A DNA stretch of 64,000 nt from the NCBI GenBank assembly GCA_046484135.1, contig JAWOBU010000017.1, positions 18,696 to 82,695 of the forward strand. The letters run 5' to 3'. This document shows positions 17,970 to 21,668 of this stretch, one piece after another. This DNA comes from a bacterium (lineage in GTDB: Bacteria > RBG-13-61-14 > DATKZS01). The position numbers and the translations under genes are program-made. Position 1 is the stretch's first letter; each line of letters begins with the position of its first letter. Below the pieces are notes generated by a model. That model was not told the DNA's origin, ran no database searches, and was given only the letters and a program-made list of their open reading frames with translations.

Positions 17970-18941
17970 TCATCCTGCCGCGGCTCGTTCCTTTTCCAGC
18001 AGCTCCAACTGGAGCTTCTTCCACTCATGGCCCCGCTCCTGGATTTCCCGGTATGATAGCTCGTCATCCACGTCCAGGGTGGGTCCCGGCCCGATGGTCT
18101 CAAGGATACGACCGGAGGTCTGGAAAAGGCGGCTTATGCGCTTTTCCACCACCGCCACCGGCACATAAGGACGGATCATGTCCCGCAGCCGGTGCCAGCC
18201 GCGGCGGTGGGAGGTCTTGGCGATCTGTAACAGGAAGTAGTAAAACAGGTTGCCGGGAGTGAGGACATAGCGGGAGATGGCGAAGAGTCCGCTGACCACG
18301 TTCCGGAAGTGGCGCTGGTAGCGGAGGTTGTAGATGATGGGCACGTACTTGCCGGTTACCGCTCCCAGGTGCAGCGGCCGGAAGCAGAAGATGTTCGAGT
18401 GCCGCGCGATATACTCCTTGAAGCAGTAGTACATCCACCACTCTCCAGGCGCGACTCCGTGAGGAGTGAACGGCTCCAAGAGGTCCTCCCGGGTAAAACC
18501 GTACACGATGTTGGCGGAATCGAGCGGTGCGGTGCTGATGAAATGATCAATCTCGAAAGGCTCGATAAGAGGAAGGTCGCTGGTAAGGGCGAACACTGCC
18601 TTGTCCGACTCGGGCGAAGACTTTAACTCTTCCTCTGTTGCGCCCTCCCGGTAAGCGGGAAAGGTGGAAAGAGCGCCGTAGTAAATGTTCTCGAAAATGT
18701 CTCTGCCCTGTTCGCGCACATGGAGCGGCTTGGCCGAGGAATAACCGGTAAGGCTCTTCTCAAGCCGGGAGCCGGGACCTATCACGGTTATCGAACTTAC
18801 GGTCTCCGACCGCTCCAGGGCCTCGACCACCCATGTAACGAGCGGCTTCTCCTTATAAAGAAGAAAAGCCTTATTATCTCCCAAAACCGGCACCGCGGCC
18901 TCGCTGTCGCCGGCAAGAACTATGGCGTCCAAAGTCCTCAT
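17970..18941 (-). CDS. Nucleotidyltransferase (MobA-like NTP-transferase fold) with C-terminal extension
   Basis: N-terminus LDAIVLAGDSEAAVPVLGDNKAFLLYKEKPLVTWVVEAL is typical of GT-A NTP transferases. Confidence 0.6.
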   Translation of the reverse strand: MRTLDAIVLAGDSEAAVPVLGDNKAFLLYKEKPLVTWVVEALERSETVSSITVIGPGSRLEKSLTGYSSAKPLHVREQGRDIFENIYYGALSTFPAYREGATEEELKSSPESDKAVFALTSDLPLIEPFEIDHFISTAPLDSANIVYGFTREDLLEPFTPHGVAPGEWWMYYCFKEYIARHSNIFCFRPLHLGAVTGKYVPIIYNLRYQRHFRNVVSGLFAISRYVLTPGNLFYYFLLQIAKTSHRRGWHRLRDMIRPYVPVAVVEKRISRLFQTSGRILETIGPGPTLDVDDELSYREIQERGHEWKKLQLELLEKERAAAG

Positions 18942-18969
18942 CACCCGAAACGTCCTTTGACTATGGCCT

Positions 18970-20034
18970 TTATAACTTTTGGCTTGTCAATATCAATGCG
19001 CCTTCCGGACATTGCATAACACAGGCACCGCAGGAAAAACAAGCCTCACGGTCATGGAAAGTGATCTTTTTCTCATCATCCAGGTCCCCGTATACCCCCA
19101 ACGGACAGACCTCGAAGCAGGTGCGGCAGCCCGCGCATCTGTCGCGGTCAAGATGTATAAATCCGCTCTGGCTTTCCTTCATGATCCCCGGCAGCTTGTT
19201 TATGCCAAGCTTCCGGAGCATGTACATGGGGTCCGACTTTCTTCCTGAAGCAGTGCCCGCCAGGTCCAGGCCCGCTGCCAGGAATATGCCCAGACCGGCG
19301 ACCTGCCACCCCCAGTGCCGGAGCGGGTCCTGCAAGAGCAGCCAGTCCGCTGTAATCCAGACTACCACCAGTCCGGCCCACGCCACAACCGCCTTGCCCC
19401 AGCCGGTCCGGCCGGGGATTATGTTGATGCCGGCGTAAAGCACTGCCGCGGCGCCCCAGAACAAGGCGGTGAAGCCGAGGAAGTACTCGCGGAAGAAGAT
19501 GAGAAGAACGACCGAGATCACGAGGTAGACGGGAAAGTTCATGGACAGGAACATGTCCGCCCGGTGGCGGAGATCAAATCTGGTCCGGCACATCCTCTCC
19601 GTCTTTTTCTTGCCGGCCGCGAGATAGGCGGGAATGTCAGCGGCATCCACCGGCCCGAACCGGGCGTGAAAGCCGGTCTCGTCCTTGATCGCCTTCCGGT
19701 CCATGCCGGCCGCAGAGAGCAGTGGAAGGACAAGCTCGCGGTGCTCGACCTCCTCGGCCAGTCCGCTCGTCTTCACCGCGTCAATGACCCGGTTGTGGGT
19801 GAAGCTCCTGCCCACCGCGGCGCACCACACGTTAATGCCTTCCGAGTTCGCGGCCAGGACCCACACGTCCAGGCCCTCCACCGCTTTCAACAGGCGTTTT
19901 ACGGTGAGCGAGAAGTTGCAGGTAACCAGTACCGGCGAGTGGCGGTCCGGCGAGCCCGACTTATAAAGGCCGGTCTCCGCGCCATGTCCGAACCAGCGGA
20001 ACAGATACGCCACCAGCCGGCCAAGGACTCCCAT
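18970..20034 (-). CDS. Fused HgcA-like corrinoid/membrane protein + HgcB-like 2x[4Fe-4S] ferredoxin (HgcAB-like)
   Basis: Cap-helix-like motif INVWCAAVGRS (HgcA hallmark is N(V/I)WCA(A/G)GK); about 5 TM helices at residues ~170-260; C-terminal CAGCRTCFEVCP and CFSCGACVMQCP ferredoxin motifs. Start ATG overlaps the upstream methyltransferase stop (TGATG). Confidence 0.6.
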   Translation of the reverse strand: MGVLGRLVAYLFRWFGHGAETGLYKSGSPDRHSPVLVTCNFSLTVKRLLKAVEGLDVWVLAANSEGINVWCAAVGRSFTHNRVIDAVKTSGLAEEVEHRELVLPLLSAAGMDRKAIKDETGFHARFGPVDAADIPAYLAAGKKKTERMCRTRFDLRHRADMFLSMNFPVYLVISVVLLIFFREYFLGFTALFWGAAAVLYAGINIIPGRTGWGKAVVAWAGLVVVWITADWLLLQDPLRHWGWQVAGLGIFLAAGLDLAGTASGRKSDPMYMLRKLGINKLPGIMKESQSGFIHLDRDRCAGCRTCFEVCPLGVYGDLDDEKKITFHDREACFSCGACVMQCPEGALILTSQKL

Positions 20035-20675
20035 CACTTTTCCTTCCGGGCCACCAGGTATAAGAAATTGTCCAGGCCGCTCCGTTCAGCTTTTTCCAGC
20101 TTGAAGCCCGCGGCTTCTACCCGCTCTTCCAAGCCGTCCACTGCATGGGTCGTGGTCTGGGTGAATATAAAGGTGATAACAAGAAGCGGAATCCTTATAA
20201 GCGTGTGAAGGAGGCGGTTCCAGGCACTGCGGGGCCTGGCCTCGCAGGCCAGGGCCAGGCTCCCGCCCGGCTTCAGCGCGCGGTATGAATGGGAAAGCGC
20301 GTAAGACTGCTCATCAGCGGACAGCTCGGAAAACACCAGGGTAGAAGAGACCAGGTCGAAGCGCTCGGCAGGCAGCCGGTCCATGCCCGAGACCCCCATC
20401 TCCTTCAGCTCGACCCGGTCGCCCAGTCCCTCCCGTTCGATCTTGTCAGCGGCAATGGAAAGCATGGCGGACGAGATGTCGAATCCCAGGACCGATGCTC
20501 CCCGCCGCGCCGCGAGTATCGCCATGGTGCCGGTGCCGACCCCGATCTCGAGGACCCGCGAGCCCTCCTTCACGTTCTCTTCGGTCAGCTTCTCCTTGAT
20601 CCTTTCCGAGCGGCCCAGGCTCAGCCACGCCAGACCACGGTCATAGCGGTCCGGCTGCGACTCCAACAGTTTCAT
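20034..20675 (-). CDS. Class I SAM-dependent methyltransferase
   Basis: Motif I VLEIGVGTGTMAILAA, motif II ...FDLVSSTLVF. ATG at 20675 gives MKLLESQP. Confidence 0.75.
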   Translation of the reverse strand: MKLLESQPDRYDRGLAWLSLGRSERIKEKLTEENVKEGSRVLEIGVGTGTMAILAARRGASVLGFDISSAMLSIAADKIEREGLGDRVELKEMGVSGMDRLPAERFDLVSSTLVFSELSADEQSYALSHSYRALKPGGSLALACEARPRSAWNRLLHTLIRIPLLVITFIFTQTTTHAVDGLEERVEAAGFKLEKAERSGLDNFLYLVARKEK

Positions 20676-20792
20676 GTAAATGTAGCTGGACAAATGAATC
20701 CCCTGCACATGAATCGGTGTAGAGATCAAATGGTAGCACGGCGAGAAAGCCGGGAAAAGTAACTCTGCATGCTTCGTAAAAGAGGATGATCC

Positions 20793-21668
20793 CTATTTCT
20801 CTTTTCCGACCTCTCCTGATTCCGCCTTTTCTTTTTTCAACTCCGCAGGGGGCACGACAGTGGGATGGAAAAGTATCTCGCCTTTCACCCGGTACTCGTG
20901 GATCAGCTTCTGGGCCGCGGGAGTGGTTAACCATTCGGCAAGATGGATGGCGTCCTCGTTGTTGGCCTCCGGCCAGCGCTCCGGGTTCACCGCGATAATC
21001 GAGTACCGGTTGTCGAGCCTCGGCGCCCCCTCGAACACTATGTCGAGCGCAAAATTCTTTTGCAGGGCCAGGAAGGTCCCCCGATCGCAAAGGATGTATG
21101 CCCGCCTTTCGTCGGCAATGCGCAAAGACGCGCCCATGCCCTGGCCGGTCTCGAGGTAGTCGTCCTCCGGAGGGCCGGACACCAGCTTCCAGAGCTTCTT
21201 CTCCTTTTTGTGGGTGCCCGACTCGTCTCCGCGCGAGACAAACACCGCGCCTTCCTTGTCCTTTATAAGTCGAAGCGCTTCGGAAAGACCCTTGGCATCC
21301 TTCACGCCCGCCGGGTCCGAGGGAGGCCCTAAAATTACAAAGTCGTTTTTCATGAAAGGCGTCCGGTTCACGCCGTAGCCTTTTTCTACGAACCGCTTCT
21401 CCGCGTCCGGTGCATGGACCATGACCACGTCCACGTCTCCGTTCTCAGCGAGCTTCAAGGCCCGGCCCGTGCCCACGGCTATTACCCGCACGTCCGTGTT
21501 GTACTCTTTCTCAAAAGCGGGCAGGAGGTGCTCGAGCAGTCCCGAGTTCTCCGTGCTGGTGGTGGTCGCCATCTTGAGAACGCGGGGCTCTTTGTCCTGC
21601 GCAAACACAGCAGACCCCAAAAGGCAGACTGCCAATAAAACCACTGCCGACAAAACCGATCTTTTCAT
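20793..21668 (-). CDS. Periplasmic substrate-binding protein, TupA-like (tungstate/oxoanion ABC transporter binding protein family)
   Basis: Signal peptide; TTTSTENSGLL anion-binding motif as in TupA; RBS taaggagg. Confidence 0.6.
   Translation of the reverse strand: MKRSVLSAVVLLAVCLLGSAVFAQDKEPRVLKMATTTSTENSGLLEHLLPAFEKEYNTDVRVIAVGTGRALKLAENGDVDVVMVHAPDAEKRFVEKGYGVNRTPFMKNDFVILGPPSDPAGVKDAKGLSEALRLIKDKEGAVFVSRGDESGTHKKEKKLWKLVSGPPEDDYLETGQGMGASLRIADERRAYILCDRGTFLALQKNFALDIVFEGAPRLDNRYSIIAVNPERWPEANNEDAIHLAEWLTTPAAQKLIHEYRVKGEILFHPTVVPPAELKKEKAESGEVGKEK

Follow-up and report, generated by a model that had tools for sequence, protein, structure and literature searches.

The DNA analyzed here is a stretch of 64,000 nucleotides (nt) from a bacterial genome (GTDB lineage Bacteria; RBG-13-61-14; DATKZS01), namely positions 18,696 to 82,695 of contig JAWOBU010000017.1 in assembly GCA_046484135.1, and this whole stretch is called the window below. 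It carries a gene for an HgcAB-like fusion protein, directly preceded by cpaM, the gene for a methyltransferase that depends on S-adenosylmethionine (SAM). These two genes are a conserved unit that is widespread in Bacteria and Archaea. An earlier note on this DNA had described a larger arrangement, a four-gene operon in which the pair is flanked by genes for a TupA-like binding protein upstream and a MobA-like nucleotidyltransferase downstream, and had suggested that the combination forms one functional system. Four open reading frames (ORFs) are present where it placed them (Table 1), all co-directional and separated by gaps of 99, -1 and 25 nt, and the stop codon of the methyltransferase overlaps the next start codon with one base in common (gTGATGg), which is the coupling that had been read there. 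Outside this genome the two-gene core is widely kept, whereas the four-gene cluster recurs only in two relatives.

Relatives were sought in one genome per GTDB species. At least 588 were found, and 80 loci, drawn from numerous phyla of Bacteria and Archaea, were examined by a phmmer search of all their ORFs with nine local proteins of the window as queries. The loci were classed by the cap-helix motif of the corrinoid domain, which either has the lysine of HgcA (NVWCAAGK) or lacks it (NVWCA(A/S)xGG and variants). A CpaM gene accompanies 72 of the 73 HgcAB-like genes without the lysine. It is adjacent in 53 of them, mostly at -28 to +38 nt, fused in frame in 14 that belong to several phyla, and 0.3-1.8 kb away in four; at L049, which is counted among the 72, it is truncated by the contig edge. 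None of the six NVWCAAGK genes (L065, L068, L074, L075, L076 and L077) has a CpaM gene. Three of these six were scored with NCBIfam and all pass the HgcA model, the true HgcA controls in L068 and L075 reaching 416 and 478 bits. It is this near-obligate pairing on one side of the cap-helix division, and its absence on the other, that identifies the two genes as the conserved unit. The association also holds in the reverse direction, since a look-up that starts from the CpaM hits P0202 and P0153 finds an HgcAB-like gene next to each, with a 4-nt overlap.

Fusion of the two genes is recurrent and takes two forms. At L006 a single ORF is a triple fusion of CpaM with the HgcAB-like protein and is matched by both NCBIfam models, and at L019 both models match an ORF that joins CpaM to the HgcA-like part, while the HgcB-like gene is separate. 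The latter layout is seen in the Chloroflexota loci L019, L026, L050, L061, L062, L071, L079 and L080. ORFs of approximately 590-630 amino acids (aa) that contain CpaM, the HgcA-like part and a ferredoxin occur at L006-L009, L012 and L013 (Desulfobacterales, Calditrichaceae, Lentimicrobiaceae and others). Another CpaM homologue (P0212, 371 aa, 64% identity) has 4Fe-4S ferredoxin domains and no CdhD in its precomputed Pfam list; it may have arisen from a triple fusion by deletion or through an assembly artefact. Genes are inserted between cpaM and the hgcAB-like gene at L022, L023 and L053; these are a second methyltransferase-like ORF, genes that resemble toxin-antitoxin genes by their translation, and an unrelated gene. 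Selenocysteine read-through was considered for loci where in-frame HgcA and HgcB ORFs are split by one stop, and it was rejected because the stops are TAA, TAG or TGA and a new methionine follows within 1-5 codons, as expected for ordinary adjacent hgcA and hgcB genes.

The surroundings of the pair offer hints about its regulation. A TetR-family regulator lies directly upstream of cpaM in approximately 19 of the 80 loci, from many unrelated phyla, and ATP-binding cassette (ABC) exporter genes lie near the pair in approximately 10. Together these neighbors hint at ligand-induced expression and possibly export. Examples with the regulator are L038, L041, L042, L057, L073 and L080, and also L085 and L093; ABC-2 type exporter genes are found near several Chloroflexota loci (L018, L023, L060 and L071). 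On L091 and L092, the contigs of P0202, an IS21 IstB-like ATPase, an integrase fragment and a HigB/helix-turn-helix toxin-antitoxin system are located no more than 3 kb upstream of the cassette. These mobile-element neighbors are compatible with horizontal mobility of the cpaM/hgcAB-like pair.

The window methyltransferase scores 276.7 bits on the NCBIfam model for the corrinoid protein-associated methyltransferase CpaM (NF043040, cut-off 180), and it is 100% identical to a GenBank CpaM entry of 219 aa. Its gene most likely starts at TTG 20693 and not at 20729, because the TTG codon gives the GenBank product length, occupies the same column as an ATG in the relative L084, and is preceded by an AGGGGA ribosome-binding site. 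In CpaM the SAM motif I residues G51, G53 and T54 are invariant, as is the acidic D72 that serves as ribose ligand, and a long helix with the pattern RxPLxxxTFxxTQTxT is conserved. The AlphaFold2 (AF2) model has a class I fold of the Coq5/UbiE type (TM-score of 0.78 to Coq5). From its genetic linkage and fusion, we infer that CpaM acts on the corrinoid protein.

The partner had been called a fused HgcAB-type protein, and this identification stands. It scores 371.5 bits on the NCBIfam model for the HgcAB-like fusion protein (NF043039, cut-off 285), with residues 7-348 aligned to profile positions 3-349 of 350, and it is 100% identical to a GenBank entry named 'MAG: HgcAB-like fusion protein'. 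It remains below threshold on the models for HgcA (NF040863, 161.5 bits, cut-off 275) and HgcB (NF040864, 52.2 bits, cut-off 99). A better alignment of its N-terminal domain to the corrinoid iron-sulfur protein (CFeSP), which the earlier note had named as a refuting outcome, was not found: the CFeSP gamma model (NF003195) gives 80.6 bits against a cut-off of 306 and aligns over its last 124 profile positions only, far below the score on the HgcAB-like model. Pfam assigns CdhD to residues 21-138 and finds two Fer4 matches, and the overall order is a corrinoid-binding domain, a four-helix membrane domain and a 2x[4Fe-4S] ferredoxin.

The cap helix of the corrinoid domain reads GINVWCAAVGRS at residues 67-78 of the 355-aa ORF. 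Its AAVGRS segment is present as the earlier note reported, although what was described there as a variant is the norm of this family. Among 26 homologues, G67, I68, N69, V70, W71, C72 and G76 are all invariant, and the residue before G76 is variable. The same alignment bears out the conserved cap-helix cysteine that had been pointed to. By analogy with HgcA, the one protein for which cysteine-thiolate ligation has been demonstrated (PMC11588087), Cys72 is presumed to be the lower axial ligand of cobalt.

Approximately five transmembrane helices followed by a 2x[4Fe-4S] ferredoxin had been expected. The ferredoxin part is borne out, but the AF2 model (pLDDT 83.7, pTM 0.78) has four helices, which DSSP places at residues 156-181, 183-202, 212-235 and 242-262 in agreement with the hydropathy peaks. 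With four helices, as in this model, the corrinoid domain and the ferredoxin would face the same side of the membrane. Within the membrane domain and just beyond it, H158, D231, D258, S268 and D269 are invariant among the 26 homologues, and R159, D161 and H241 are nearly so (>=90%). The model continues with a disordered linker after helix 4 and then the ferredoxin domain, which has two complete CX2CX2CX3CP motifs (C301/304/307/311 and C333/336/339/343). Apart from these eight motif residues there is no cysteine after residue 150, and the protein ends 12 residues past C343 with a tail that contains none. The window protein belongs to a short-tailed bacterial subgroup that lacks the C-terminal 'KFKLNLMGKR' extension, which the aligned archaeal-type members have and which many bacterial ones share. 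In a structure search the closest match to the AF2 model is the integrative HgcAB model 9a0b (E = 2.4e-11), followed by the corrinoid domains of CFeSP large subunits, which superimpose with a root-mean-square deviation of approximately 2 Å over approximately 125 residues. A sequence search of the PDB returned no experimentally solved HgcA-type chain.

By analogy with HgcAB, we propose that CpaM loads the methyl group of SAM onto the Co(I) corrinoid and that the HgcAB-like protein then passes it to an acceptor other than mercury, and we give this reading a probability of roughly 0.55. In purified HgcAB, SAM directly methylates Co(I), the cysteine is the lower ligand of methyl-Co(III), the two HgcB clusters relay electrons, and the methyl group then goes to Hg(II) (PMC11588087). 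In the proposed cycle, the C-terminal ferredoxin would reduce the corrinoid in the N-terminal CFeSP-type domain to Co(I). CpaM would then bind SAM and move its methyl group to Co(I), which would yield methyl-Co(III) that the Cys72 thiolate may stabilize. These first two steps we infer from linkage, fusion and the analogy with HgcAB. In the last step, an acceptor on the cytoplasmic side of the four-helix domain might receive the methyl group in the form of a carbanion or radical equivalent. Hg(II) is unlikely to be this acceptor, since methylmercury did not exceed control levels in organisms that carry fused genes. Following the 2024 demonstration that HgcAB uses SAM, transfer from SAM through CpaM to Co(I) provides a concrete half-reaction hypothesis for the family.

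Several points weigh against this assignment. The HgcAB-like locus L033 has no CpaM gene within 8 kb upstream. Pairwise distances of CpaM and the HgcAB-like protein are correlated (r = 0.70, Mantel p = 0.001, 66 pairs), which speaks for their linkage, but this correlation could in part reflect shared species phylogeny. Clustering of the neighboring ORFs of the 80 loci gave no conserved third gene that might point to the acceptor. We know of no class I Rossmann methyltransferase that methylates a protein-bound corrinoid, and the literature searched holds no biochemical report on any CpaM or fused HgcAB-like protein. Finally, SAM methylates the corrinoid of true HgcAB with no partner methyltransferase involved (PMC11588087), so that such a partner is not chemically required.

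The main rival to the model of transfer from SAM through CpaM to the corrinoid is a repair function similar to that of methionine synthase, MetH. CpaM and the ferredoxin would then serve only to reactivate Co(II) by reductive methylation with SAM, and proteins encoded elsewhere would handle the catalytic donor and acceptor, for which methyl-tetrahydrofolate (methyl-H4folate), methylated or halogenated one-carbon compounds and methoxylated aromatics are candidates. Methionine synthase reactivation combines electron donor, SAM-binding and corrinoid modules, and an electron donor, a SAM-binding protein and a corrinoid protein are exactly the inventory of the pair. The corrinoid domain is also homologous to that of CFeSP, which uses a separate methyltransferase, and a preprint in which HgcAB dechlorinates CCl4 (10.64898/2026.04.26.720869) suggests that other corrinoid chemistry is possible in the superfamily. 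Against repair, the 80 loci show no conserved second methyltransferase gene next to the pair, and a factor that serves only for occasional repair would hardly be expected to be paired so regularly and fused in frame. In HgcAB, moreover, SAM is the catalytic donor and not a mere repair reagent (PMC11588087). On balance we consider repair rather unlikely.

A second alternative returns to the four genes as one metal(loid) system, perhaps controlled by a riboswitch and linked to tungsten or molybdenum. The TupA-like gene has in its leader, 58 nt upstream of the ATG, an aptamer of the molybdenum cofactor/tungsten cofactor (Moco/Tuco) riboswitch class that the earlier note had missed and that heads the entire gene string. 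A terminator-like hairpin separates it from an AAGGAGG ribosome-binding site. The genes that follow run in the same direction across short gaps with no terminator detected between them, and TupA and MobA are both related to molybdenum or tungsten by name. The arrangement recurs in two relatives, L081 and L084, with HgcAB-like proteins 79% and 75% identical to that of the window, respectively, and in L081 an RF01055 element is found at the same place, upstream of the orthologous gene.

Most of the comparative evidence points the other way. No homologue of the TupA-like, nucleotidyltransferase or CGGC-domain proteins, nor of the porin or GEGP cytochrome proteins of the region, was found by phmmer at any of the 80 loci, and relatives at 58-61% identity retain the methyltransferase alone within unrelated flanks. 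The two closer relatives also share genes beyond the cluster: L081 retains PspA, GATase, amidohydrolase, ThiC and CGGC genes, and in L084 the CGGC gene is kept along with the first part of the porin gene. Their conservation of the four genes is therefore a matter of recent common ancestry. Rfam finds no Moco riboswitch near other HgcAB-like genes (13 further complete loci), and a covariance model built from three copies of the riboswitch has no match near such genes in 88 sources (1.07 Mb). The element therefore belongs to the TupA-like gene.

The proposed operon is likewise called into question by the gap in front of cpaM. No terminator is predicted within these 99 nt, but an operon had been read from spacing alone, and the gap contains a promoter-like patch that is its sole alignable block among the window, L081 and L084. 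To judge by its sequence, the patch is a possible internal promoter before cpaM, although a sigma-70 consensus scan did not call it. With the TupA-like gene and its riboswitch, and the MobA-like gene, both being neighbors acquired in this lineage and lying outside the conserved machine, a functional system of four genes is improbable.

The flanking proteins themselves fit the names they were given to different degrees. The TupA-like protein has the tungstate-type motif MATTTSTENSGLL and a signal peptide, as had been noticed, and it matches the solved TupA-type proteins 3muq and 3lr1 with 236-238 bits and 5my5 with 233 bits. Pfam PBP_like_2 gives 126.6 bits, and the score on the TupA equivalog model (NF041772) is below threshold. 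No tupB or tupC gene is adjacent to it or found among the approximately 30 larger window ORFs scanned. The sole real ABC ATPase signature in the window, at approximately 1790, belongs to an energy-coupling factor (ECF)-type transporter with CbiQ; this ATPase/CbiQ pair (1283-3829) and housekeeping genes are all that a search for Moco biosynthesis and cobalamin genes among these larger ORFs returned. Rfam likewise found no cobalamin riboswitch in the window.

The label MobA-like is only partly apt. An NTP_transf_3 domain is present, but it is weak (31 bits, cut-off 27), and none of the equivalog cut-offs of 164-186 is reached (MobA 17.8, MocA 17.0 and IspD 15.5 bits). The sole PDB match of this nucleoside triphosphate (NTP) transferase is the hypothetical protein TTHA0179, and its C-terminal half of approximately 165 aa is uncharacterized. 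Its gene begins 25 nt past the HgcAB-like stop codon, behind an AAAGGA ribosome-binding site. The family is rare (17 hits), and homologues with 49-50% identity reside in unrelated contexts that have neither HgcAB-like nor binding-protein genes, which further argues against a four-gene system. Assignment as a CobY-like cobamide enzyme or as MobA was considered and not adopted, given a generic domain match and no conserved link to corrinoid genes; one distant homologue is labeled 'cobinamide-phosphate guanylyltransferase' by JGI.

A broader proposal can be built on the SAM-CpaM-corrinoid model, which we regard as speculative and somewhat doubtful. In it the pair would act as a 'polarity-reversing' two-protein methyltransferase: the electrophilic methyl group of SAM would enter through CpaM onto a cysteine-ligated corrinoid and leave it in carbanion or radical form for an electrophilic acceptor beyond the reach of SAM enzymes, such as a non-mercury metal(loid) or a membrane-associated compound. 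The lysine/glycine switch in the cap helix might then mark the difference between direct use of SAM, as in true HgcAB, and a need for CpaM, and in this lineage the cassette may be on the transcript of the Moco/Tuco riboswitch. If true, the riboswitch-led cassette would be the first regulatory clue that ties the family to tungsten or molybdenum status.

Two alternatives are weaker still. CpaM could act on a substrate of its own, for example a quinone or lipid as UbiE and Coq5 do, and merely be co-expressed with the corrinoid protein. The solved folds nearest to it (Coq5, CmoA and natural-product methyltransferases) and its generic UbiE/COQ5 Pfam matches are in keeping with this. The in-frame fusions of CpaM to HgcA(B) at 14 of the 80 loci in several phyla, the strict absence of CpaM beside true HgcA, and the HgcAB-like gene found beside each of the two CpaM hits with an inspected contig make an independent substrate very improbable. 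The least probable reading is that the window protein is a genuine mercury methylase, a fused yet functional HgcAB. In its favor are a corrinoid domain and a membrane domain that are both homologous to those of HgcA (161.5 bits), the best structural match, the NVWC motif with the cysteine, the ferredoxin domain and the limited weight of culture negatives. Against it, the protein scores under both equivalog cut-offs, lacks the GK of the diagnostic motif, the HgcB cysteines and the fifth helix, differs clearly from a true HgcA-HgcB fusion, and has relatives in Pyrococcus furiosus and Methanococcoides methylutens with which no methylmercury was formed above controls.

Table 1. Features of the cpaM/hgcAB-like region, in window coordinates
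Feature	Position	Strand	Details
NTP-transferase ORF	17970-18944	minus	324 aa
MobA-like NTP-transferase-domain gene	17970..18941	minus	323 aa from ATG 18941
HgcAB-like ORF	18970-20037	minus	355 aa from GTG 20037
HgcAB-like fusion protein gene	18970..20034	minus	354 aa from ATG 20034
Ferredoxin domain	18985..19161	minus	residues 293-351, Pfam Fer4 matches
Membrane domain	19252..19572	minus	residues 156-262, four predicted transmembrane helices
Cap-helix motif GINVWCAAVG	19810..19839	minus	residues 67-76, contains Cys72
Methyltransferase ORF	20034-20729	minus	contains cpaM
cpaM	20034..20693	minus	class I SAM-dependent methyltransferase, 219 aa, TTG start (most likely)
Conserved patch upstream of cpaM, within its 99-nt gap to the TupA-like gene	20731..20760	minus	possible promoter, extended -10 type TGnTAnnAT
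TupA-like binding protein ORF	20793-21668	minus	291 aa, signal peptide, TTTS motif
GC hairpin and T-run, terminator-like	21716-21704	minus	downstream of the aptamer, ahead of the AAGGAGG ribosome-binding site
Moco/Tuco riboswitch aptamer	21726..21863	minus	Rfam RF01055, 74.6 bits (gathering 36), E 3.6e-16, full model

A second Moco/Tuco riboswitch is present in the window at 14651-14775 on the plus strand (RF01055, 59.7 bits). It lies directly upstream of a string of plus-strand genes (14937-16220, 16238-17389 and 17601-17945). Their products are a diheme protein with the GEGP motif (NF041762, 427 bits), an outer-membrane protein similar to phosphate porins and a protein with a CGGC domain. 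This string converges on the HgcAB-like string, and the region thus has two riboswitch-led units, which may serve molybdenum or tungsten acquisition. Farther away on the plus strand, a group II intron catalytic-domain RNA (982-1063, RF00029, 44.8 bits, gathering 40) occurs just upstream of the ECF-type pair, and three ORFs of 674, 712 and 259 aa (8267-10291, 10168-12306 and 12966-13745) have no Pfam match at E <= 1e-5.

For the window itself the result is mostly deflationary. Its proteins already carry the correct names in GenBank, the four-gene 'system' is local synteny, and the interest lies at the level of the family. Metagenomic surveys for mercury methylation routinely catch fused HgcAB homologues and must filter them out, and their function has been acknowledged as unknown since 2015. 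In the present sample, pairing or fusion with CpaM, a cap helix without the lysine, the absence of the HgcB cysteines and a four-helix membrane domain separate HgcAB-like proteins from true HgcA.

One of the known systems close to this pair is HgcA/HgcB. It shares with the HgcAB-like protein a homologous corrinoid domain, the NVWC cap helix with its cysteine, a membrane domain that is homologous up to an (N/D)(F/L)xG(T/S) motif, a ferredoxin that relays electrons and SAM as the likely ultimate source of the methyl group. The differences are specific. True HgcA reads NVWCAAGK(G/K)T at the cap-helix columns, whereas HgcAB-like proteins have no lysine there, and the NVWCAAVG of the window does not conform to the diagnostic HgcA motif set N(V/I)WC(A/S)(A/G/S)GK (PMC10087281). 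True HgcA has five transmembrane helices; the HgcAB-like protein is predicted to have four, with a linker to the ferredoxin in place of the fifth. The true HgcB proteins at L065, L068, L074, L075 and L077 have GVGC (GTGC in L074) and a C-terminal CC, both absent from the window protein; of the HgcB cysteines, the one that follows cluster 2 and the terminal CC pair are cited as crucial (PMC11588087). The ferredoxin is fused and a dedicated SAM methyltransferase is the partner in HgcAB-like loci, whereas true HgcAB loci have no such partner. The statement in the earlier note that fused HgcAB homologues are reported not to methylate mercury agrees with the literature, in which the organisms tested made no methylmercury (PMC10087281, PMC4646819, PMC5893877). 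These include P. furiosus and M. methylutens, for which Podar et al. point out that a negative culture assay is no proof against catalysis by the fused enzyme (PMC4646819).

Fusion is also known from a true mercury-type protein. A Spirochaetaceae metagenome-assembled genome (MAG) encodes a true HgcA-HgcB fusion (L076:6012-7172) with NVWCAAGK, a C-terminal CC and no CpaM, which scores 332.6 bits on the HgcA model (cut-off 275) and 102.4 bits on the HgcB model (cut-off 99). The non-methylating 'fused HgcAB' family can therefore not be defined by gene fusion alone.

The large subunit of CFeSP (AcsC/CdhE) has the Rossmann-type corrinoid domain in common with the HgcAB-like protein (Pfam CdhD; PDB 2h9a, 4c1n and 4djd), and CFeSP with MeTr in the Wood-Ljungdahl pathway follows the same logic of a corrinoid carrier and a separate methyltransferase. 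The HgcAB-like protein lacks the N-terminal [4Fe-4S] cluster, the TIM-barrel part and the small subunit, and its PDB matches are to the C-terminal corrinoid domain only. Its cap helix has a cysteine where CFeSP has a threonine, it is anchored in the membrane, and its partner is a SAM enzyme, in contrast to the methyl-H4folate enzyme that serves CFeSP. In MetH reactivation, the flavodoxin, AdoMet and cobalamin domains would provide the same three functions, to judge by domain content. MetH binds SAM with an unrelated fold (that of CpaM is class I Rossmann), the presumed lower ligand here is cysteine rather than the histidine of MetH, the HgcAB-like protein has a membrane domain, and SAM is proposed as the catalytic donor. 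The flanking gene has the TTTS motif, matches of 233-238 bits and an RF01055 leader in common with TupA genes under Moco/Tuco riboswitch control, but it differs in falling under the equivalog cut-off (244.8 versus 400) and in having no tupB/tupC.

The HgcAB-like/CpaM pair that is already curated (NF043039/NF043040), the 'fused HgcAB' of Podar et al. 2015 with examples in P. furiosus and M. methylutens, has the same architecture, the NVWCAAxG motif and an overlapping upstream methyltransferase. The family, its architecture and the pairing with CpaM are thus known, although the literature searched does not mention CpaM and gives no function for fused HgcAB beyond 'does not methylate Hg'. What goes beyond existing annotation is the rule of exclusivity between cap helix and CpaM, the catalogue of CpaM fusions, the predicted four-helix topology and the riboswitch context. 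The window pair differs from this family in nothing essential, and what sets its lineage apart is the setting of the pair, with a TupA-like gene under riboswitch control on one side and a MobA-like gene on the other.

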